Origin: an uncultured Armatimonadetes bacterium
GTDB lineage: Bacteria > Armatimonadota > UBA5829 > DTJY01
Assembly: GCA_963717145.1 (NCBI GenBank)
Contig: OY970325.1
Coordinates: forward strand, 3,520,001-3,584,000
Length of the DNA stretch: 64,000 bases
Direction: 5' to 3'
Position 1 is the first letter of the stretch. Each line of letters starts with the position of its first letter. Positions 1,722 through 24,778 of this stretch are shown piece after piece. The translations under genes and the position numbers were made by a program. The notes beneath the pieces are model-generated. The model was not told the origin of the DNA and did no database searches. It was given only the letters and a program-made list of their open reading frames with translations.

Positions 1722-3188
1722 GTAACAGTTCAGGCTTAGGGATTATTTTGTCTGTAAGAAGAAGGAACCTGCTGGGAGCGTCTCGAACCAAGGAGTGTGA
1801 GCGAGCAATCCAAGCCGACATACGAGGAGCTTGAGGCCAGGGTCAGCCAGTTGGAAGGTCTAGTTCCCCAACTCGTGGCGCGTATCGGCGACCTGGAGAA
1901 GGAGAACGAAGACCTTCGCGCCAGGCTTTCCGGCGGTGATGGCAGTTCCCCATCCGTGCCTGACTGGGTGAAGCCGAACCGCAAAGAGCGCCGGGCAGCT
2001 GAACGAAAGAAGCGCAAGAAGTCGTTCGTGCGCAGGCGGGAGACACCCACCCGTGTAGTCGAGCACGCGCACTCGAAGTGTCCGGACTGCGGCCGAGCGC
2101 TCACAGGGGGCACGGTAAAGAGACTCCGCCAAGTCATCGACATCCCCATCGTGCCTGTGGACGTAGTCGAGCACAGGTTCATCGCCAGAAGATGCGGATA
2201 CTGTGGCAAGAGTCATGTGCCGAAGGTTGACCTTTCCGGCCAGGTTGTAGGCAAGCATCGGGTAGGCGTGAACCTGATGAGCCTGATATCGTATCTTTCG
2301 ACGGTAGGTCGCATGACAAAGCGGACGATACAGGGATTGCTGAAGGCTCTGTATGGTCTTCAGCTCTCTGTGGGAGAGATAAGCGAGATATTGCACACGG
2401 TGGCAGACTGTGGCAAAAAAGAGAAAGAGCGGCTACTCTCGCTTGTACGTGGAAGCCCATACATAAACGCAGACGAGACGGGCTGGAGAGAGGATGGGCT
2501 GAACGGATACATCTGGACCTTCTCCACTAAGAACGTGCGCTACTTCATCTACCGGCGGAGTCGGAGTGGAGAGATCCCGAAGGAAACGATAGGCGGCGAC
2601 TACGAAGGGGTAGTGGTAACGGATTGCTATGCCGGATACAACCCGGTAGTTGCAGACCGCCAGATATGCTGGGCACATCTGGCCAGGGATCTGCACAAAC
2701 TGAAGGAGAGGAACGCGGACGACACGGGCGTCATCGCATGGGCGGATGCGGTGAAGGGTGTTTACGATCGGGCAAAGGAGTTCCGGAGCAAGAAGGCGGA
2801 GGTTCGCAAGTGGAAGCGAGTACTCTTCGAGGAAGAGGTAGAGGCGCTCTCAGGTCCGTATGTCGGCTCAGATGCTCCACAGCAGACGCTGGCAAAGAGA
2901 TTCATAGATCGCTTGCACGAGTTGTTCATGTTCGTAGAGTACCCGGAAGTACCGTCGGACAACAATGGCGCAGAACGAGCGCTGAGGCCGTGTGTGATCG
3001 CCCGCAAGGTATGCGGAGGCACACGAAGCGCGAAGGGTTCCGAGACAAAGATGACGCTCATGAGTCTGTTTGGCACATGGCACGTCAGGGGTCTGGACAT
3101 GCTCGAATCATGCAGGCAACTGCTCGCAGGCAAGTCTGTCCTCTTCCCTGCCTGATCAAACTCGTTATCCCCAAGCGTGAACTGTTAC
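1722..3188 (+). mobile_element. IS66-family element (single-ORF ISBst12-like group), copy 1
   Basis: Terminal IRs GTAACAGTTCAGGCTTAGGGAT and ATCCCCAAGCGTGAACTGTTAC; 8-bp TSD CCTGCATT at 1714-1721 and 3189-3196. Confidence 0.95.
1797..3155 (+). CDS. IS66 family transposase
   Basis: Coiled-coil N-terminus, CPDCG and CGYCG zinc finger, ADETGW, TDCYAGY, QICWAHL, DNNGAERALRP. Confidence 0.95.
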   Translation: MSEQSKPTYEELEARVSQLEGLVPQLVARIGDLEKENEDLRARLSGGDGSSPSVPDWVKPNRKERRAAERKKRKKSFVRRRETPTRVVEHAHSKCPDCGRALTGGTVKRLRQVIDIPIVPVDVVEHRFIARRCGYCGKSHVPKVDLSGQVVGKHRVGVNLMSLISYLSTVGRMTKRTIQGLLKALYGLQLSVGEISEILHTVADCGKKEKERLLSLVRGSPYINADETGWREDGLNGYIWTFSTKNVRYFIYRRSRSGEIPKETIGGDYEGVVVTDCYAGYNPVVADRQICWAHLARDLHKLKERNADDTGVIAWADAVKGVYDRAKEFRSKKAEVRKWKRVLFEEEVEALSGPYVGSDAPQQTLAKRFIDRLHELFMFVEYPEVPSDNNGAERALRPCVIARKVCGGTRSAKGSETKMTLMSLFGTWHVRGLDMLESCRQLLAGKSVLFPA

Positions 3189-6010: not shown

Positions 6011-7885
6011 TCATGCCTCCAGGAGCGGGAACTCCGTGATCCGGAGCTTCGCGCAGCCGTAGGGGATGAGCGTCAGCTCCTCGACCGGCTCGGATGACTT
6101 CGCCGGGCTCTGCGGGAGCGGGCCGGCTTGGTTGTCGACCAGCTGCCACTCCGGGAGCTTCCGCCCCTTGACCCTCAGCTCGATCGGCGCGAACTCCGGG
6201 CCGTAGACCACCTCACCGACCGACTTCTTCACCACCTCGACCTGCCGGCTTCTCTGGGTCGAGCAGCAGCCCATAGTTCCACGGCGTCGTCGGATGGACC
6301 GCATAGTCCGGCAGCATGGATCCTCCCCTCTGATCTTCTCCCACCGCTCGCCGATCTTGAGCGAGTAGACGAGCGGCCCGCGCTTGAGCGTCACCGAGTC
6401 GTTGAACCGGCGCTCGACCGCGACCTTCATCGGGAATCGAAGCTCGACCACATCGCCATCGTGCCACTCGCGCTCGATCGAGTGAAACGTCCCCGGCTCG
6501 GCATGGTCGGCCTCCCCGTTGATATGGACGCTCACTCCCTCGGCCCACGCGGGAATCCGGAACCTGAGCGGGAAGGCTGCCGCGTGCTCGAGAGGTGGAC
6601 GGTCACCTTGATCGTCTCGTCGAACGGGTAGTCGGTCTCCACGTCGACGGTGACGCTTCCTGCCCGCCTCGGACCTTTGCCTTCACCTGGCACGGACCGT
6701 ATGCCACCGCCGCGAGACCCTCATCGGGCGTCGCCATCCAGAGGTTGGCGGCGAACTTCGGCCAGCCCTGGTGCAGGTTCGCCGTGCAGCACCCGTAGTT
6801 CGGCTCGAGGCCGAAGAGGTTGGACGTCATCGCTGTTGTTCGTCCAATGACGCTTGTCGATCGTGCAGAGCACCTGGTTCGCCTGCTGATCGTATTGATG
6901 CTGCCACATGTCGGCGGTGAACGTGCCGGGGAGCGCGTTGTAGGCGATCTTCTCCAGCCGGTCGCCGAACGCCGGGTCGCCGAGCATCTGCATCAGGTTC
7001 TCCAGCGAGAACATGTACTCCACGACCGCGCACAGCTCCGTGCCCTGGGTCGGATTCTTGCCGGCATAGTGCTCGTCGCCGGTGAAGATGCCGACCGCCG
7101 TGCCGTGATACTTGTCGAGCATCTCGATGCGTCTTTCCGACCGCGTCCTTGTGCTCCTCCCAGCCGGTCAGGACGTACTGCACGCCGGGAGTCTTCGCCG
7201 CCATGCCGTTGTTCACGACGTGCGTGCGCATCCCGAAGGCAAGCGTCTGCTTCTGGGTGTGAGCGAAGTCGGTGAAGTGGTAGCTCCAGTCGTAGCCCTG
7301 GCGCATGATGTCGTTCGCGAGTTCGATCAGCTCGGGGTCGCCGTTGCGGTTGTAGAGCCAGATGATGCTGAGGACGCGTATCCGCCCAGCGGACCTTCGC
7401 CCAGGTGTACAGATGCCGGTTGTTCGGAAGCTCGCGCTTCATGTACTTGAAGAACCGCTCCATCAGCGGGATCACGCGCGGGTCGCCGGTCGCCTCCTGA
7501 TACTGCGTGAGCACCTTGAGGATGATCCCGAACGGCCACCAGTCGTTGAGCGACTTCGGGCCGAAGTGGCCGCGCTCGTCCTGGCTGTCGAGAGTCCAAT
7601 CCATCCATTGCTTCGCGATGCCGATCAGCTTCTCGTCGTCCAGGAGGATACGCGAGCGGAACGAGGCCGTCGAGGTAATACGGCCCGCGCTCCCAGCTCT
7701 CGCCCGTGCCGCCGAGCCACCCGCTGTTCGGCCCGAGCGACTCCCAGAACTCCGGCAGCATGCCCGGTCTGCCCATTCGCCTGTATCGCGAGTTGTCTCT
7801 TCAGCCATCCCTTCGGCTTGACGCTCCCCAGCGGCAGGAAGCTGAACGCGGTCTCCTGCAGCGGTTGGCGGTTCGATGTATGCAT
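6011..7885 (-). CDS. GH127 (DUF1680) beta-L-arabinofuranosidase-like glycoside hydrolase, several frameshifts
   Basis: Fragments in different frames join into one GH127: [66 protein letters not shown]. Confidence 0.8.
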
Positions 7886-7906
7886 CCTGAAGGCCTCCGA
7901 TTCCGG

Positions 7907-8003
7907 TCGGGAGGGCGAGGCTCCGTCCGAGCCGGATGCTCCGGTAGCCCCACTTCGTTCTGCTGCCGAAGCATCCGGCTCGGACGGAGCCTCGCCCTCC
8001 CGA
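7907..8003. repeat. Long inverted repeat (REP doublet/MITE-like)
   Basis: Perfect 34-bp arms: TCGGGAGGGCGAGGCTCCGTCCGAGCCGGATGCT (7907-7940) and its reverse complement (7970-8003). Confidence 0.9.
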
Positions 8004-8004
8004 C

Positions 8005-8043
8005 TACTCCCACACTCCCATACTCCCACACTCCCATACTCTC
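8005..8043. repeat. 8-bp tandem repeat (CTCCCAYA)n
   Basis: tactcccacactcccatactcccacactcccatact; the same unit recurs at 19942-20002. Confidence 0.85.
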
Positions 8044-8086: not shown

Positions 8087-8740
8087 ATGCAAGCGGACAG
8101 AATGTGCGCCATTTTCGGTGATATCGTCAAGTCGCGAGTGACCCTGGAGCGGGCCGAACTGCAGAAGCGCATCCATGTGGCGGTCGGTCAGGTGAACGAA
8201 CGCTTCCGGGACCACATTGCCATTCCCTTCCGCATCATCGCCGGCGATGAGATCCGCGGCCTGCTCAGGGATGACACGTGCAGCTACGAGTTGATCCTCA
8301 CGATCGAGAGGGCGATCTGGCCCGCTCGAATGCGCTACTCCATCGGCATCGGAGGCATCACCACGGACCTGTCGGAGAGCATCGACGCCATCGACGGGCC
8401 TGCGCTCCACAGGGCGAGCGAGGGCATGGACCTCCTCAAGAACAGGAAGCGCGCTCATGGCCGATTGATCCTCTTCCGCTCGGACGATCAGGCGCGTGAT
8501 GACCTGCTCAACGCGCTGACGTTTCTCGTAGATTCGATCAAGAGCCGCTGGACGGCCGAGCAGTTCGAGCGCGCGTTATTGGCTCAGTCAGGCCTGTCTG
8601 TGGCCGAGATTGCTTCGCGACTCGGGATCAAGCAGCAAGCCGTAGCCAGGTCCATCTCCACGGCGATGTACCCGACCGTGGAGGAGGGGTCCAGGCAGAT
8701 CGGCCTGCTGCTCAAGAATAACAACGCAAATGCGTTGTAA
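8087..8740 (+). CDS. satD: SatD family protein (nucleotidyl-cyclase-like N-terminal domain plus C-terminal HTH)
   Basis: [28 protein letters not shown] and DGPALHRA motifs; C-terminal [22 protein letters not shown]. Alternative start at 8102. Confidence 0.85.
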
Positions 8741-8883
8741 TCAGGATAACAACGCAAATGCGTTGTTATCTGGGTTGAAACGCATCTGCGTTGCAATCCG
8801 GATAGCAGCCAGATGTGGCTGCGAACCCGATGACACCCTGTGGCGGGTGTTATCCGGATAACACCCGAACTCGGGTGTTATCC
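8716..8883. repeat. Array of six contiguous 28-bp palindromic units
   Basis: Units start at 8716, 8744, 8772, 8800, 8828 and 8856. Consensus is roughly GGATAACA-N12-TGTTATCC and each unit is self-complementary. Confidence 0.9.
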
Positions 8884-8900
8884 ACTGCGGAGGACCGAAG

Positions 8901-9668
8901 ATGGTACGCCAACTCCTGCTGATCCTGCTGATATCCCACATCATCGCCGACTTCGCCGTTCGTCGGGAGGTCCTGGGGCAGAAGAACGGCGCGCGGACGA
9001 GCGCCTCATGGCCGCACCTCTTGGTCTTCGTCGGCCTCAACTCCCTCGCGTTTCTCTGCATCGCGTTCCTGAACGGCAGTATCTCCGCAGTTCCCTGGAT
9101 GGCATACTCGCGCCTCGTCCTGGGGGTCGCTCTGTTCCATTGGCTAGTCGACCGCGTCTTCCAGCGCACCGGCCTGTGGGATAGGGAGAAGGTCGGATCG
9201 CGGCAAAGATGGCTCTACGTGATCCAGCAGGCACTCAAGATCGTCTTCATACTCCTTGCGGCCGGCGCCGGCGGGACCGTCAGCTTTCCCGGGGATGGCA
9301 TCAAGCCGCTCGCATACGTGTTTGGGTACGCATTCTCGTTGTTCGCCGGGGATGCGTTCGTCTGCCTGGTATTGACCAAGCTCACCTGGACCACTGATAA
9401 GGAAGCGGTCTCCGAATCAGTCGCGGGAGGCGGGCGGCTGATTGGAGTCTTCGAGGCGATTCTGGTCACCACCTTTGTGATAGCGCATCAGTACGCAGCG
9501 ATCGGGGTCATACTTGCGGCGAAGTCACTCGCGCGGTTCGAATGGCTGAAAGACCACGAGGGCCGAGCCGAGTACTTCCTCGTGGGCACGCTCGCGAATC
9601 TGACCTGGTTGGCGCTCGGAGGGCTGCTCGCCCTCTGGTTCGCGGGCCGTGCACTCTTCCCCGGCTGA
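8901..9668 (+). CDS. DUF3307 (SatE-like) membrane protein
   Basis: GGAGG RBS; LLISHIIADF and HWLVD motifs; C-terminal GRLIGVFE...AAKSLARF...AEYFLVGTL. Confidence 0.8.
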   Translation: MVRQLLLILLISHIIADFAVRREVLGQKNGARTSASWPHLLVFVGLNSLAFLCIAFLNGSISAVPWMAYSRLVLGVALFHWLVDRVFQRTGLWDREKVGSRQRWLYVIQQALKIVFILLAAGAGGTVSFPGDGIKPLAYVFGYAFSLFAGDAFVCLVLTKLTWTTDKEAVSESVAGGGRLIGVFEAILVTTFVIAHQYAAIGVILAAKSLARFEWLKDHEGRAEYFLVGTLANLTWLALGGLLALWFAGRALFPG

Positions 9669-9763: not shown

Positions 9764-10420
9764 GTGAACAAGAGAGCAGTTCTCATAGCTTTGATGGCTT
9801 CCGCCATGATGGCGATCGGAAGCGCCGCCTATGCCACGCCATCCACACTGATCTGGATACCATCGACCGACATCCAGAGCGGCTCGATGCACCTCGGGAT
9901 CGATATCTACGAGGCATCCGGGGATGGCGACCTTCCGACCGACTACGGGCTGACGTTCGGCAACGGGGAGTTCGAGTATGGTGTGGACTACTTCGAGGGG
10001 ATCGACGATCCGGTCTTCTTCAATGCCAAGGCGCTGCTCATAGACGAGTCGCCGACATCGCCCCGACTGGTCGCCGGAGTCTACGGCCTGGGGACCAGGA
10101 GCGCCACATCCTCCAGTATCATCTATCTACTTGGCAGCAAGACCTTCCCCATCGGGCGCTTCACCGCCGGCTATGGTGTCGGCAGGAAGGCGGCTCTGGG
10201 TGAGGACAACGCGATGATCCTGCTCGGATTCGACAAAGCCTTGAGCGACAGATGGTGGGCAGCCGTCGACTACCAGGGTGGCAAGAGCGCATTCGGCGCG
10301 CTGAACGCGGGCGTGGCGTACACCTTCAGCCCGACTACCAGCGTCATAGTCGGTCGGGACTGGTACAACGATCGCTCTATCCCGGATACACTCACCGCTC
10401 AGCTCGACATGAACTTCTGA
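9764..10420 (+). CDS. Exported protein, probable outer-membrane beta-barrel
   Basis: GAGGAGG RBS, signal peptide ending AYA, alternating beta-strand pattern, C-terminal Phe. Confidence 0.55.
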   Translation: MNKRAVLIALMASAMMAIGSAAYATPSTLIWIPSTDIQSGSMHLGIDIYEASGDGDLPTDYGLTFGNGEFEYGVDYFEGIDDPVFFNAKALLIDESPTSPRLVAGVYGLGTRSATSSSIIYLLGSKTFPIGRFTAGYGVGRKAALGEDNAMILLGFDKALSDRWWAAVDYQGGKSAFGALNAGVAYTFSPTTSVIVGRDWYNDRSIPDTLTAQLDMNF

Positions 10421-10422
10421 CG

Positions 10423-11553
10423 CTACTGGTTCTGGGGTCCCTGGTTCTGCGGGTCGGCCGCTATCTGCGCCTGAACATCCCGGCCAACGACCCGCTCGCC
10501 GAGCTTCTCCAGGATCTCCTCCGGCTTGTCGGCGGCGCGGAGCATCTCCGCTCGGTCAAGCAGTCCCTTCTGGTACGCGTCGAACAGCGAAGCGTCGAGC
10601 GTCTTCATGCCGAGCTGCTGCCCGGTCTGGATGGCAGATACGATCGAGTGGGTCTTCTTCTCGCGGATCATGTGGGCGATCGCGGGAGTCGAAAGCATGA
10701 CCTCGAAGCAGGCGACGCGTCCACTGCCTCCCTTCTTGGGGAGAAGGAGCTGCGAAATGACGGCGATGAGGTTGCCACTGAGCTGAGTCCGGATCTGCTC
10801 CTGCTGATCGAACGGGAACACGTCGACGATTCGATCGACGGTTCGCGCAGCGCCGGTCGTGTGCAGGGTCGAGAATACGAGGTGGCCGGTTTCAGCAGCG
10901 GTGACCGCCGCTGAGATCGTCGCCAGGTCGCGCATCTCACCGACGAGGATGACGTCCGGGTCCTGGCGCAGGGACTTGATGACTCCTGTGGCGAAACTGG
11001 GAACATCCTTGCCGACTTCGCGCTGGGAGATGATTGACTTCTTGGCCTGGTGATAGTACTCGATCGGGTCCTCGATGGTGATGATGTGGCAGTCCCGGTT
11101 CTCGTTGATGAAGTCGATCATCGTGGCGAGGGTGGTGGTCTTGCCACTTCCGGTCGGCCCGGTTACCAGGACCAGTCCCCTGGGAGCGTAGAGAAGTCGC
11201 TGGAGTCGCTTGTCGAGGCCGATCTCCTCGAACGTCAGCAGCGTGAAGGGGATCAGGCGCATGTTGATGGCGATGGTGTCTTTCTGCGTGAAGACGGCGC
11301 ACCGGAAACGCGCGCGGTCGCCGAACGAGAAACCGAAGTCCGCGCCCTGCACCTCTTCGACCTCTGCCAGCGACCTCGGCTTGGCGATCTGCCTCATCAG
11401 GTCATCGGTGGTCTTGGCATCAAGCACGCCGAACTCATCGAGCCTCTTGAGCCGGCCATGCAGGCGCAGGGTTGGCGGCTCACCGACAACCATGTGGATG
11501 TCCGACCCGCCGAGATCAACTGTCCGGTCGAGAATATCGTTAATGTTCAGCAT
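10423..11553 (-). CDS. pilT: Type IV pilus retraction ATPase PilT
   Basis: GSDIH, Walker A GPTGSGKTTT, TIEDPIEY, LRQDPDVILVGEMRD, AAETGHLVFSTLHT, GMKTLD. Confidence 0.93.
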   Translation of the reverse strand: MLNINDILDRTVDLGGSDIHMVVGEPPTLRLHGRLKRLDEFGVLDAKTTDDLMRQIAKPRSLAEVEEVQGADFGFSFGDRARFRCAVFTQKDTIAINMRLIPFTLLTFEEIGLDKRLQRLLYAPRGLVLVTGPTGSGKTTTLATMIDFINENRDCHIITIEDPIEYYHQAKKSIISQREVGKDVPSFATGVIKSLRQDPDVILVGEMRDLATISAAVTAAETGHLVFSTLHTTGAARTVDRIVDVFPFDQQEQIRTQLSGNLIAVISQLLLPKKGGSGRVACFEVMLSTPAIAHMIREKKTHSIVSAIQTGQQLGMKTLDASLFDAYQKGLLDRAEMLRAADKPEEILEKLGERVVGRDVQAQIAADPQNQGPQNQ

Positions 11554-11589
11554 CCGGTCCCCCCTTGTCAGCGAACTCCAGTCGAGCCA

Positions 11590-11618
11590 GGTATAACACA
11601 ACGAGCCGGGCTTGTCAA
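11590..11618 (-). promoter_or_regulatory. Sigma70-type promoter for pilT
   Basis: Minus strand TTGACA-N17-TATACC with TG extension. Confidence 0.55.
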
Positions 11619-16149: not shown

Positions 16150-17208
16150 GGAGCTAGCCTGATGCTTGAACATCAGGGCACTCGCGTGAACGGAGTAGCG
16201 GTTGTCGTTACCGCATAGCAAACCCAGCTGCTGTCTACCGGTATTATTACCAGTTTTTCACCATCATCGAGCTTGATTTCCAGAAAACCGGTGTATTGCC
16301 CCTTGACAAATGCGCAGGTGCTGGATACCTTGTGCGCAACGGCAAGCTGCCACAGAGCAGCCGCCATAACGACAAGGAGGAGTAGAGATGAACACGAAAC
16401 AGATTCTGGCAGTATCGGTAGTGGCGATAGCAGTGGCGTTCACGTCGCTGTCCACCGCGCAAGCAACCTCGCTGAGGTACAACGTTATTGACCTCGGCAC
16501 ACTCGGGGGGATCAGCAGTTCAGCGACCGCCATCAACTCAAGCGGTCAGGTCACAGGGTATTCGTACGCTCCCGGTGATTCGCGCGGGCATGTCTTCCTG
16601 TACAGCGGAGGCGGACCGATGCAGGACCTGGGGAGACTCCCCGGCTCAGATCCCGATCAGGCCTCGGTGGGCGAAGCCATCAATGATTCGGGAGTTATCG
16701 TGGGTTACGGAGGCTACTATCCCTGGCGTGCTCTGATATGGGATTCCGCGAACGGGATGAGAGTGCTCGACGTGCCGGGATCGCAACCCTATAAAGAAGC
16801 CTACGACATCAACAACACCGGACACGTGGTCGCGAACGAGGAGGCCCATAATGGAAACCCCGCCAATGCTTACATTCAGAGGAACGGTTCGTGGACACAG
16901 ATTCCCGCTCTCTCCGGTTACCCGAACATGGTTCCACATGCCATCAATAATCAAGACCAAGTCGTAGGGATGGCGAGGCCAGGTGCCTGGCCGTCGACGT
17001 CATATCACGCTTGGATGTGGGATGAGTCCGGCGGCACGCGCGACCTGGGTGCTCTAGGAGGGGCGCAATCGGGTGCTGTGGACGTGAACGATGCAGGTGA
17101 CGTCGTCGGGTGGGCAGACACAACCTCAGGCGACAGACACGCATTCCTCTACAGTGGAGGGACCATGCGGGACCTGGGCACACTGGGAGGTACATATAGT
17201 CAGGCTAG

Positions 17209-18796
17209 CAGCCTGTCCATGAAATAACCTCTGGCGCAAGGTGCCAGGTATGTAGTAAAATACGGGTATGAGCAAGCCATACCTTCCTTATCAACCTGAC
17301 CAGATATTGCTGTTGCCGCCCTTGATGTCGGAGTGGCTGCCCGAGGGACATCTCGCATACTTTGTGAGCGATGTCGTAGACAGTCTCGACCTTTCCGCGA
17401 TATACGCCTCATACGAGAAAGAGGCCCGAGGAGCGCCGCCGTTCCATCCGGCAATGCTTACAAAGATCATATTCTACGGTTTGTGCCGGGGAGTGTATTC
17501 ATCTCGAAAGCTCTCCCTGGCCACGTATGAAGATGTAGCCTTCCGGGTGCTTGCGGCAGGAAATCATCCCGACTTCCGCACGATAAGCGAGTTCAGGAAG
17601 AGGCATCTCAAGTCCCTTGCGGACCTGTTTGTGCAAGTGCTCAGGCTATGCGCAAGCGCCGGGCTTGTGTCGATGAAACACATAGCCATAGACGGAACAA
17701 AGCTGCTTGCCAACGCAAGCAAGCACTCCGCCATGAGCTACTCTCGGATGGTCGAGAAAGAAAAAGAGCTTCAGGCTGAGATCGAGGCGCTCCTTGCGAA
17801 GGGTCTTTCTGTGGACGACCAGGAAGACGCGGAATATGGTCTTGACCGCCGAGGAGACGAACTCCCGGAGGAACTCGCAACCAGAGAGAAGCGGCTCGCC
17901 AAGATCAGGGAAGCAAAAGAAGCGCTGGAGCGCGAGGCCAAAGAGCGAGCATCAGCCGAAGAAGCGATGCGAGCCCAAGAGAAGGCGGAGCAGGAAGCAT
18001 CCGGGAAGAAGCCTCGCGGCAGAGAGCCGGGGCCCGTAAAGACAGAGCCGGAAGGGAAGGCACAGCGGAACTTCACAGACCCGGAAAGCCGGATAATGAA
18101 GGACGCAAAGAAAGCCTTCGTGCAGGCATACAACGGACAAGCTGCGGTAGACGCAGATCATCAGATTGTAGTGGCGTGTGATCTCACGAACCAGGCAGCG
18201 GACTCACCGCATCTTAGTGACATGATCGAGGCAATCAAGGAGAACACCGGAAAGAAACCGGAAGAAGTATCCGCCGATGCCGGATACTTCAGCAGCGACA
18301 ACATAGAGATGGTCGAGCAGCAAGGGATCGACGCTTATATACCGCCTGACAGACAACGTCATGGCAAAGAGCCGACGGCGCCTTCCTGCCTTGATCCGGC
18401 AAAGCAATCCGCCGCAGATCGCCAGAGAGCAAAGCTCTTGACTCCTCTTGGCCGAAAGATCTACGGGAGGCGGAAGGAGACGGTAGAGCCGGTGTTCGGC
18501 CAGATCAAGAGCGCACGGAACTTCCGAGGCTTCCTACTCCGAGGCCTTGCGAAAGCGAAGTCGGAGTGGACGCTTGCGTGTCTTGGGCACAACATGCTGA
18601 AGCTATACCGATACGGCGACCGGAAATCGATCTTCGATACGTAGATATATGACCTGGATCAGGCTGATTATCAAGGTACAAGGGGTCTTTACAGACCCTC
18701 GCCGGAAATCCGGCGAAAAACACTATCGAACAGCAGCCAGCGCGACCCCGCAGATGGGAAACTCACCCACATAGCGGGGAATTCTCAGACAGGCTG
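17209..18796 (+). mobile_element. IS1182-family insertion sequence
   Basis: Ends CAGCCTGTC and GACAGGCTG; CTAG duplicated at 17205-17208 and 18797-18800. Confidence 0.9.
17268..18644 (+). CDS. IS1182 family transposase
   Basis: WLPEGHLAYF, PFHPAML, PDFRTISEFR, IDGTK, NFTDPES, ADAGYFS, VEPVFGQIK. Confidence 0.93.
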   Translation: MSKPYLPYQPDQILLLPPLMSEWLPEGHLAYFVSDVVDSLDLSAIYASYEKEARGAPPFHPAMLTKIIFYGLCRGVYSSRKLSLATYEDVAFRVLAAGNHPDFRTISEFRKRHLKSLADLFVQVLRLCASAGLVSMKHIAIDGTKLLANASKHSAMSYSRMVEKEKELQAEIEALLAKGLSVDDQEDAEYGLDRRGDELPEELATREKRLAKIREAKEALEREAKERASAEEAMRAQEKAEQEASGKKPRGREPGPVKTEPEGKAQRNFTDPESRIMKDAKKAFVQAYNGQAAVDADHQIVVACDLTNQAADSPHLSDMIEAIKENTGKKPEEVSADAGYFSSDNIEMVEQQGIDAYIPPDRQRHGKEPTAPSCLDPAKQSAADRQRAKLLTPLGRKIYGRRKETVEPVFGQIKSARNFRGFLLRGLAKAKSEWTLACLGHNMLKLYRYGDRKSIFDT

Positions 18797-19242
18797 CTAG
18801 GGGCATCAACCTCAGCGGCCGGGTAGTGGGCGGGTCGTACATCGCCTCTGACTCGGCAGCACACGCCTTCGTCTACGACAATGGTTCGATGTATGATCTC
18901 AATGGCCTGATCGACCCATCGTCGGGTTGGGTACTAAGCTGGGCCACAGCCATCAACAAGAACGGCTGGATTGCGTGTGATGGTATCACTGCTGACGGTC
19001 AGACCCACGCTCTTCTGCTGAAACCTGTTCCCGAACCATCATCCCTACTTGCCCTTGCAGGCGGTCTTGGATTCCTGGTCCCGATGTTTCGCCGTCGCAA
19101 GTAATCCCACACAGCACCCTGGATCAGGCCGGGCACCAAGTCCCGGCCTGACCCTTCCCAGATCTCTGTTCTGCTGTACCCGTATCTCCGACTCCGCCTT
19201 GGCCAGCCTGGAGAAGGGAGAACAGACACCCTTTTCCTCGTG

Positions 19243-23311: not shown

Positions 23312-24778
23312 GTAACAGTTCAGGCTTAGGGATTATTTTGTCTGTAAGAAGAAGGAACCTGCTGGGAGCGTCTCGAACCAAGGAGTGTGAGCGAGCAATC
23401 CAAGCCGACATACGAGGAGCTTGAGGCCAGGGTCAGCCAGTTGGAAGGTCTAGTTCCCCAACTCGTGGCGCGTATCGGCGACCTGGAGAAGGAGAACGAA
23501 GACCTTCGCGCCAGGCTTTCCGGCGGTGATGGCAGTTCCCCATCCGTGCCTGACTGGGTGAAGCCGAACCGCAAAGAGCGCCGGGCAGCTGAACGAAAGA
23601 AGCGCAAGAAGTCGTTCGTGCGCAGGCGGGAGACACCCACCCGTGTAGTCGAGCACGCGCACTCGAAGTGTCCGGACTGCGGCCGAGCGCTCACAGGGGG
23701 CACGGTAAAGAGACTCCGCCAAGTCATCGACATCCCCATCGTGCCTGTGGACGTAGTCGAGCACAGGTTCATCGCCAGAAGATGCGGATACTGTGGCAAG
23801 AGTCATGTGCCGAAGGTTGACCTTTCCGGCCAGGTTGTAGGCAAGCATCGGGTAGGCGTGAACCTGATGAGCCTGATATCGTATCTTTCGACGGTAGGTC
23901 GCATGACAAAGCGGACGATACAGGGATTGCTGAAGGCTCTGTATGGTCTTCAGCTCTCTGTGGGAGAGATAAGCGAGATATTGCACACGGTGGCAGACTG
24001 TGGCAAAAAAGAGAAAGAGCGGCTACTCTCGCTTGTACGTGGAAGCCCATACATAAACGCAGACGAGACGGGCTGGAGAGAGGATGGGCTGAACGGATAC
24101 ATCTGGACCTTCTCCACTAAGAACGTGCGCTACTTCATCTACCGGCGGAGTCGGAGTGGAGAGATCCCGAAGGAAACGATAGGCGGCGACTACGAAGGGG
24201 TAGTGGTAACGGATTGCTATGCCGGATACAACCCGGTAGTTGCAGACCGCCAGATATGCTGGGCACATCTGGCCAGGGATCTGCACAAACTGAAGGAGAG
24301 GAACGCGGACGACACGGGCGTCATCGCATGGGCGGATGCGGTGAAGGGTGTTTACGATCGGGCAAAGGAGTTCCGGAGCAAGAAGGCGGAGGTTCGCAAG
24401 TGGAAGCGAGTACTCTTCGAGGAAGAGGTAGAGGCGCTCTCAGGTCCGTATGTCGGCTCAGATGCTCCACAGCAGACGCTGGCAAAGAGATTCATAGATC
24501 GCTTGCACGAGTTGTTCATGTTCGTAGAGTACCCGGAAGTACCGTCGGACAACAATGGCGCAGAACGAGCGCTGAGGCCGTGTGTGATCGCCCGCAAGGT
24601 ATGCGGAGGCACACGAAGCGCGAAGGGTTCCGAGACAAAGATGACGCTCATGAGTCTGTTTGGCACATGGCACGTCAGGGGTCTGGACATGCTCGAATCA
24701 TGCAGGCAACTGCTCGCAGGCAAGTCTGTCCTCTTCCCTGCCTGATCAAACTCGTTATCCCCAAGCGTGAACTGTTAC
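23312..24778 (+). mobile_element. IS66-family element, copy 2
   Basis: Same 1467-bp length, ends and ORF translations as copy 1; its own TSD GAGTTCCC at 23304-23311 and 24779-24786. Confidence 0.95.
23387..24745 (+). CDS. IS66 family transposase
   Basis: Protein identical to 1797..3155. Confidence 0.95.
   Translation: MSEQSKPTYEELEARVSQLEGLVPQLVARIGDLEKENEDLRARLSGGDGSSPSVPDWVKPNRKERRAAERKKRKKSFVRRRETPTRVVEHAHSKCPDCGRALTGGTVKRLRQVIDIPIVPVDVVEHRFIARRCGYCGKSHVPKVDLSGQVVGKHRVGVNLMSLISYLSTVGRMTKRTIQGLLKALYGLQLSVGEISEILHTVADCGKKEKERLLSLVRGSPYINADETGWREDGLNGYIWTFSTKNVRYFIYRRSRSGEIPKETIGGDYEGVVVTDCYAGYNPVVADRQICWAHLARDLHKLKERNADDTGVIAWADAVKGVYDRAKEFRSKKAEVRKWKRVLFEEEVEALSGPYVGSDAPQQTLAKRFIDRLHELFMFVEYPEVPSDNNGAERALRPCVIARKVCGGTRSAKGSETKMTLMSLFGTWHVRGLDMLESCRQLLAGKSVLFPA

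Follow-up and report, generated by a model that had tools for sequence, protein, structure and literature searches.

Type II toxin-antitoxin operons such as HipBA place the guard gene first, and that gene is essential only together with its partner; in HipBA-like operons, tandem phased palindromes are read by a helix-turn-helix (HTH) dimer, and the operons are patchily spread. The streptococcal sat operon, which carries the genes closest to those described here, was reportedly described in 2001 by Kremer with the order ffh-satC-satD-satE. SatD and SatE are spread over bacteria and archaea, and their "acid tolerance" label comes only from their place beside ffh; for SatD, it is repeated in the available part of PMC10326533. 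In the Panoptes system, according to the accessible text of PMC12657218, a minimal palm enzyme is enough to keep a membrane toxin silent.

We analysed a window of 64,000 nucleotides (the whole stretch of DNA presented above), in which satD precedes a SatE-type membrane gene. As in the streptococcal sat operon, the SatD (PF16264) and SatE/DUF3307 (PF11750) genes stand in the same order; unlike that operon, the window genes are not linked to ffh and lie 160 bp apart with a palindrome array filling the gap, whereas the streptococcal genes overlap. The module resembles HipBA-like operons in gene order, in its phased palindromes, in its patchiness and, for some streptococcal homologues, in the essentiality pattern of the guard. 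It differs from them in that SatD carries a nucleotidyl-cyclase-like domain, its partner is an 8-helix membrane protein rather than a kinase or RNase, and its operators may sit between the genes. By analogy, it also recalls the Panoptes pair OptS/OptE, in which a minimal palm-fold protein with two aspartates lies beside a membrane protein under a toxic-partner logic (PMC12657218, available sections). The features of the locus are as follows.

8087 to 8740, plus strand: satD, 217 aa, with a palm-fold domain at about residues 1-153, an HTH at 162-193 and a C-terminal helix (Pfam, structure model and fold matches)
8120 to 8122, plus strand: Asp12, first acidic residue of the palm site (GDIxxS), kept in 99% of 148 aligned SatD
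8246 to 8248, plus strand: Asp54, second acidic residue, in a beta-hairpin (GDE), kept in 99% of the 148
8576 to 8844, no strand assigned: variable block, comprising the HTH-coding 3' end of satD and array units 1 to mid-5
8633 to 8656, plus strand: HTH recognition helix, residues 183-190 (QQAVARSI), in a modelled helix spanning 183-192; positions 1-3 co-vary with half-site bases
8716 to 8771, no strand assigned: units 1 and 2, arms AACAAC/TACAAC and AACAAC twice; predicted cognate operators
8772 to 8827, no strand assigned: units 3 and 4, arms TGAAAC/TGCAAC and AGCAGC/CGCAGC; predicted non-cognate
8828 to 8883, no strand assigned: units 5 and 6, arms GACACC/AACACC and AACACC twice; putative weaker or other-allele operators
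8889 to 8893, plus strand: ribosome-binding site GGAGG of the membrane gene, from sequence
8901 to 9668, plus strand: SatE/DUF3307-type membrane gene, 255 aa, all helical

A sequence-only reading of this DNA had described a co-oriented module with an array that overlaps the satD stop codon and ends 17 bp before the DUF3307 start. These coordinates were confirmed: the stop (8738-8740) falls inside unit 1, and the array ends 17 bp short of the ATG at 8901. The satD start at 8087 is common to four relatives with 80-84% identity. Pfam assigns residues 8-161 of SatD to PF16264 (E 2.9e-27; 96.2 bits against a cut-off of 29), gives HTH matches below cut-off at residues 162-193, and assigns residues 5-120 of the membrane protein to PF11750 (E 9.6e-8; 32.5 bits against a cut-off of 23). 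The motifs singled out by that reading are present, namely GDIVKS, AGDE and the HTH in SatD and two HxxxD motifs (H13/D17 and H80/D84) in the membrane protein. Neither upstream of satD nor on the array did the window show a sigma-70 promoter consensus.

Directly upstream of satD (7906-8041), a 43-bp inverted repeat, whose arm has 17 near-copies in the genome, adjoins an 8-nt tandem repeat with 107 near-copies; these are REP-like elements unrelated to the satD array. Beyond them, a GH127-like glycosidase gene (6011-7885, minus strand; middle-domain match, E 3.9e-6) is spread over several frames and apparently frameshifted. An IS66-family transposase lies at 1797-3155 (E 3.8e-37), and a short tandem unit at 2269 that recurs at 23859 hints at a second copy. 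On the other side, positions 9764-10420 encode a protein predicted to be exported that ends in Phe and may be an outer-membrane barrel, for which Pfam and NCBIfam gave no match; a convergent PilT-type ATPase gene follows (10423-11601). Further on, a secreted repeat protein (16388-19104) is split by a DDE/DUF772 transposase (17268-18644); the tail of the repeat protein (18826-19104) ends in what we take to be a VPEP-type sorting motif.

The array comprises six head-to-tail 28-nt units at 8716-8883, each a 20-bp palindrome built as 6-N8-6 (a 6-bp arm, an 8-bp spacer and an arm). Units 1 to 6 have 20, 24, 22, 22, 18 and 26 self-complementary positions of 28, and the neighbouring 28-nt stretches, two per side, have 6, 10, 2 and 6. 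Scored over four units, the array reaches 0.79, the mean of the window being 0.26 (sd 0.06); no other period-28 match in the 5.37-Mb genome attains 0.70 over three units. Elsewhere in the genome, no array unit was found at up to 6 mismatches, and spaced pairs of half-sites number 0-11, at scattered positions, revealing no regulon beyond the array. The array is not one repeat, as its six units fall into four half-site types. A CRISPR or other repeat-spacer array was considered and rejected because the units abut without spacers, differ in type and yield no Rfam match at gathering score.

The sequence-only reading had proposed surveying satD loci for such arrays. We collected 164 satD loci, or 150 once identical ones were removed: the best 80 of 577 genome-contig matches (mostly Clostridia, a bias), 27 from metagenomes, 3 from plasmids and the remainder from whole-genome searches. 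An array was called when two adjacent 6-N8-6 palindromes with a period of 28-30 exceeded 40 dinucleotide shuffles at p ≤ 0.05. Significant arrays were found upstream of satD in 73/141 loci and downstream, between the genes, in 27/143, compared with 6/148 control stretches inside satD and 9/132 far upstream; 43 loci testable on both sides had none. A looser array score gave counts of 40/109 and 3/110. A period of 29 dominates in the family, and one array upstream of satD, that of L085, holds eleven phased units. The intergenic layout recurs both in the window's phylum (L004, L005, L118, L129, L131 and L132) and in the one to which L061, a Cloacimonadales genome, belongs (L146-L164).

The two layouts appear to differ in where promoters lie, although these are raw counts and weak. 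A sigma-70 match of at least 10/12 lies on the array in 0/22 intergenic-layout loci versus 16/52 upstream-layout loci, and upstream of satD in 7/21 intergenic-layout loci. This placement fits autorepression in the upstream layout and, in the intergenic layout, a roadblock that stops transcription ahead of the membrane gene; the common target in both would be the membrane gene. The module occurs in 6/301 and 13/401 genomes of the window's phylum and in 9/301 and 21/151 genomes of two other phyla, a patchy spread that suits a selfish or stand-alone guard. Three SatD relatives reside on haloarchaeal plasmids, and none was found in IMG/VR or in phage records.

Beyond recurring beside satD, the palindromes co-vary with its HTH. 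Across 65 period-29 loci with a score of at least 27, among which kin are not independent, mutual information peaked between helix position 1 and half-site base 2 (z 11), position 2 and base 3 (z 20), and position 3 and base 5 (z 16). For example, Gln at position 1 accompanies A at base 2 in 43/43 loci; Gln at position 2 accompanies C at base 3 in 22/24, and other residues accompany T in 41/41. Tree-based independent contrasts provided 1-5 pairs each, none significant, and the opposite direction almost never appeared. A control for distance supports the co-variation more strongly than these contrasts do: among pairs below 35% palm identity, drawn from 66 loci, those with 0, 1, 2 and 3 matching helix residues (663, 594, 179 and 31 pairs) shared 0.60, 1.52, 2.05 and 2.87 of the 3 bases at positions 2, 3 and 5. 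Six loci with SatD proteins only 22-31% identical to the window's in the palm combine a QQA helix with the half-site TACAA(C/G), the same half-site as in units 1 and 2. In the 434 repressor, Gln-Gln helices read ACAA.

We then derived a code from these pairings. For six loci outside the training set, including the window, it gave the right base in 16/18 held-out predictions, the sites being hand-picked. Trained without the window locus, it scored units 1 to 6 for the QQAV helix at 11.4, 11.4, -9.7, -13.5, 5.7 and 5.7. Overall, the palindromes are very probably DNA operators read by SatD, and the proposal that SatD dimers bind them is strongly favoured by the recurrence and the co-variation.

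The arrays are not always uniform. Units whose two arms leave the consensus alike occur in 6/74 arrays, and at least four such units occur in three: those of the window, L154 and L156, the last two being close kin. Arrays with at least four such units make up 3/22 of the intergenic and 0/52 of the upstream arrays; the L183 array likewise looks mixed. In L154 and L156, 6-7 units fall into three types, and the SatD proteins, identical at 197/222 residues, differ at helix position 2 (Q or K). The idea that the newest operator lies nearest satD fails in L154, where the helix fits distal rather than proximal units.

The recognition helix itself is hypervariable. The window SatD and four close relatives share 90-96% mutual identity over residues 1-163 and, in 9/10 pairs, only 31-54% over residues 181-193, with recognition helices SPAV, SQNA (twice) and RQAV in the relatives. 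In addition, one contig of run X2 matches the window at about 91% over 8324-8575 and 8845-9649 and carries 270 other letters in place of the 269 at 8576-8844, with the distal units (8845 onward) kept. Taken with the variation among the relatives' helices, this block swap indicates that the HTH and its adjacent operators turn over as a block, and the intergenic layout makes the two contiguous. We asked whether the relatives' helices fit the distal units, and this was only partly borne out. G at base 2 of the half-site pairs with R-Q or H-Q helices in L005, L194 and L157; for P0004 (RQAV), unit 3 was not favoured by the code, whose Arg training examples pointed to A, and L005 and L194 (R-Q, G at base 2) lay outside its training set. 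For P0003 and P0005 (SQNA), units 1-2 and 5-6 scored equally. The distal units are best read as putative operators of other or earlier alleles; possibly, they are instead graded-affinity sites or products of hairpin-driven symmetrising mutation.

A structure model of SatD, built from 148 sequences (pLDDT 95.3), shows a palm domain followed by the HTH. The likeness to palm-fold cyclases that the sequence-only reading cited is borne out by structure comparison, which gives a palm fold with both acidic residues in place. Class III cyclases were the top Foldseek matches (Ma1120, E 7.3e-5, TM 0.43), and VIA-align ranked GTP cyclohydrolase III 2qv6 (Z 10.4, rmsd 2.6, 111 aligned), cyclase 5mbg (Z 9.3), and Cas10 and GGDEF (both Z 8.7). 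Class III adenylyl/guanylyl cyclases, GGDEF, the Cas10 palm and GTP cyclohydrolase III thus share the fold and the two acidic residues with SatD, at an identity of only 10-21%, and no sequence-level PDB match to the palm part was found. In addition to the two aspartates, S16, R22, Q26, G53, D103 and G104 are conserved at 97-100% among the 148; the window SatD has Ser where 85% of SatD have Arg111. The palm domain likely carries a nucleotide site. Since matches to cyclases, GGDEF, Cas10 and GTP cyclohydrolase III tie, its substrate and product are not nameable. Several family members (P0148, P0154, P0029, P0040 and P0155) are tandem double-domain proteins or bear long C-terminal TPR-like tails.

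The membrane protein is modelled as all helical (pLDDT 89.2). In its N-terminal DUF3307 part, H13, D17, H39, H80 and D84 are conserved at 93-97%. The C-terminal part carries motifs common to 74 other partners, with G178, G182, E185, A207, K208, R212, E224, G229 and T230 invariant among the 75 sequences, and several partners consist of this part alone, lacking the N-terminal metal-type part. Foldseek returned no match at E ≤ 0.001; VIA gave a best Z of 9.1, to helical bundles and within the chance range, with the C-terminal half barely tested; Atlas matches were all below 0.9 and either nameless or DUF3307. Pfam and fold searches recognised no nucleotide-binding domain. A prediction of the complex with SatD returned no answer (score 0.00), which weighs neither way.

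That the two proteins form one unit, as the sequence-only reading assumed, is supported by their linkage. The partner lies directly downstream of satD in 92/101 loci. A search from the membrane side retrieved 45 of 47 matched loci, many already in the set, and yielded 40 genes with the C-terminal part, two of them lacking upstream DNA; 36/38 follow satD, counting one doubly broken case by its satD remnant. None of five N-terminal-only DUF3307 genes, two with little upstream DNA, follows satD. The exceptions are L202, a fragment, and L191, in which satD is reduced to a 26-codon stub, the array is gone, and an open 239-codon membrane gene stands behind a consensus promoter in a genome where no satD was found. 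In the L191 protein, the invariant Arg212 is replaced by Lys and Arg179 by Tyr, which may be a single, post hoc sign of decay. In G776 and G830 no satD was found, but their membrane genes sit at contig ends. SatD-like genes in L090, L091, L092, L094 and L097 are coupled to an upstream gene, with no array or SatE-type partner found; they possibly represent a different system using the same domain.

Transposon-insertion screens in streptococci provide genetic information on the family, as far as the available sections of the source papers go. Their SatD homologues are distant from the window SatD, and their downstream genes are presumed partners. The only accessory gene that is essential in S. 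pyogenes is satD, present in 178/249 genomes, with a score of 2 against 0 for its operon partner (PMC11323703); it is also essential, and its partner non-essential, in PMC5452409, although the two calls may share data. In S. agalactiae, the satD logFC values are -12.1, -9.7 and -9.8, and those of the downstream 774-bp gene, which overlaps satD by 11 bp, are +0.36, +0.57 and +0.28 (PMC4881062). Similarly, observed/expected insertions in S. mutans are 0.41, 0.21 and 0.21 for satD, which is depleted but not essential, and 1.46, 1.31 and 1.66 for satE (PMC5806208). The exception is S. equi, where satD (SEQ1218) tolerates insertions and is non-essential (PMC5452409); in the libraries of that study, the plasmid stays complete within the insertion and may silence the partner. 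Because the downstream gene is dispensable, polarity is not the cause of satD essentiality. Essentiality does not prove a dedicated toxin either, because over-production of any membrane protein can harm.

On balance, we favour an antitoxin-like guard that probably restrains a harmful membrane protein. From the computed array, its family-wide recurrence, the helix-site co-variation, the fold and the gene linkage, together with the published need for satD but not for its partner among streptococcal homologues, we infer the following course. SatD dimers would bind the 20-bp palindromes (6-N8-6), 28-29 bp apart, via the C-terminal HTH and keep expression of the membrane protein low, a protein that would harm cells if made without SatD. 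In most genomes, the operators would lie on the promoter of the two-gene operon, giving autorepression; in the window and its kin, operators between the genes would leave SatD to be made freely while array-bound SatD stops transcription from reaching the membrane gene. The HTH and the nearest operators would change fast and together, the distal units serving other or former SatD specificities. The palm domain would bind a nucleotide, probably also turning it over, and this nucleotide would modulate SatD or keep the membrane protein quiet. The S. equi exception, the depleted rather than essential satD of S. mutans, the non-significant tree contrasts, the 43 array-less loci, the missing promoter in the window, the distal fit in L154 and the open L191 membrane gene without satD count against this guard; the absence of the invariant Arg from L191, the only intact-looking orphan membrane gene, counts for it.

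A less probable contender is a Panoptes-like guard. Here the palm domain would produce a cyclic or linear nucleotide that keeps the membrane protein closed, and the cell would die once this signal disappears (through a phage sponge, host DNA degradation or displacement of SatD from the array); the array would mainly assemble SatD dimers or set the SatD level. The nearest folds are those of class III cyclases, GGDEF, Cas10 and GTP cyclohydrolase III; the near-invariant S16, R22, Q26, D103 and G104 exceed the needs of a bare dimerisation domain; and the 99% conserved D12/D54 are spaced like D6/D57 of OptS. Furthermore, a Panoptes effector is toxic alone and rescued by the active enzyme only (PMC12657218, in the sections available), which would give the same Tn-seq pattern. 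Those sections describe no HTH or operator array for OptS, whereas SatD has both. Repression alone explains the genetics, and the membrane protein, unrelated to the Panoptes effector, has no recognised nucleotide-binding domain. The window SatD has no PADLOC match, family members give weak HTH cross-matches, and mCpol is not among the 25 Pfam families listed for 148 SatD members. PADLOC neighbours are likewise few: at 1e-15, 6/100 neighbours of 27 loci matched (every second long locus of L010-L089; an uncontrolled count), four being glycosidase or ABC cross-matches and two coming from one locus. These neighbourhoods hold unrelated housekeeping genes, with no sign of defence islands. Such a nucleotide guard is compatible with the antitoxin-like reading as a second layer.

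A more speculative combination, to which we give a similarly low chance, is a DNA-gated nucleotide guard, in which the palm domains would function only with HTH dimers aligned on the module's own phased operators, so that the module would sense whether its DNA is intact and free of rivals. Host DNA degradation, a DNA mimic or a competing SatD allele would then lift the block on transcription, take away the quieting nucleotide and thereby free the membrane toxin, and the recognition helix would diversify under this conflict.

Somewhat less likely still is an ordinary regulator, in which SatD, on detecting a nucleotide through its palm domain, switches on a useful membrane protein, a metal-dependent hydrolase or transporter, under stress, satD looking essential only since derepression overloads the membrane. 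Housekeeping neighbourhoods without defence islands, the conserved H/D metal-type residues in the N-terminal part of the membrane protein, the S. equi and L191 exceptions and the link to ffh in streptococci agree with it. However, loss of the membrane gene is free of cost in the four streptococcal data sets, within the accessible parts of those papers; a few per cent of genomes carry the module; the N-terminal metal part is missing from several partners; and a single-target regulator gives no clear reason for a hypervariable recognition helix.

Most improbable is that the array acts as RNA hairpins (an attenuator, processing signal or small RNA) or as recombination sites shuffling the satD 3' end: it folds strongly as RNA (z -10.3), spacer bases pair at 0.43-0.67 in the intergenic layout versus 0.35-0.54 upstream, and the HTH-plus-array block is replaced in the X2 relative, but any palindrome folds, most family arrays lie upstream of satD on promoters and outside the intergenic part of the transcript, their bases follow the protein helix rather than a fixed consensus, the 28-29 bp period is kept while the sequence changes, and Rfam gives only generic hairpin matches far below gathering score. 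No RNA holder was found among the sequencing runs listed. Of the original three-part proposal, the palm fold, the recurrent co-varying arrays and the single unit are supported, and the RNA role is not.

The module is a catalogued gene pair with an undescribed design, real and family-wide. In the open-access papers listed by searches on SatD, DUF3307 and mCpol, no account of an array, operators, palm fold, mechanism or antitoxin role was found, nor any of the intergenic layout, the recognition code or the antitoxin pattern. The guard reading would explain a published puzzle, the essentiality of an accessory gene in S. pyogenes. It also points to a candidate toxin-antitoxin or guard family in which an operator array accompanies a cyclase-fold protein and a membrane protein. 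Should the DNA-gated reading be true, intergenic arrays would stack the operators of present and former alleles as a readable record of past specificities, and a palm domain that is active and DNA-dependent would connect operator occupancy with nucleotide signalling in a new way. The three-residue helix-to-base code across very distant proteins would amount to a natural library of orthogonal repressor-operator pairs.
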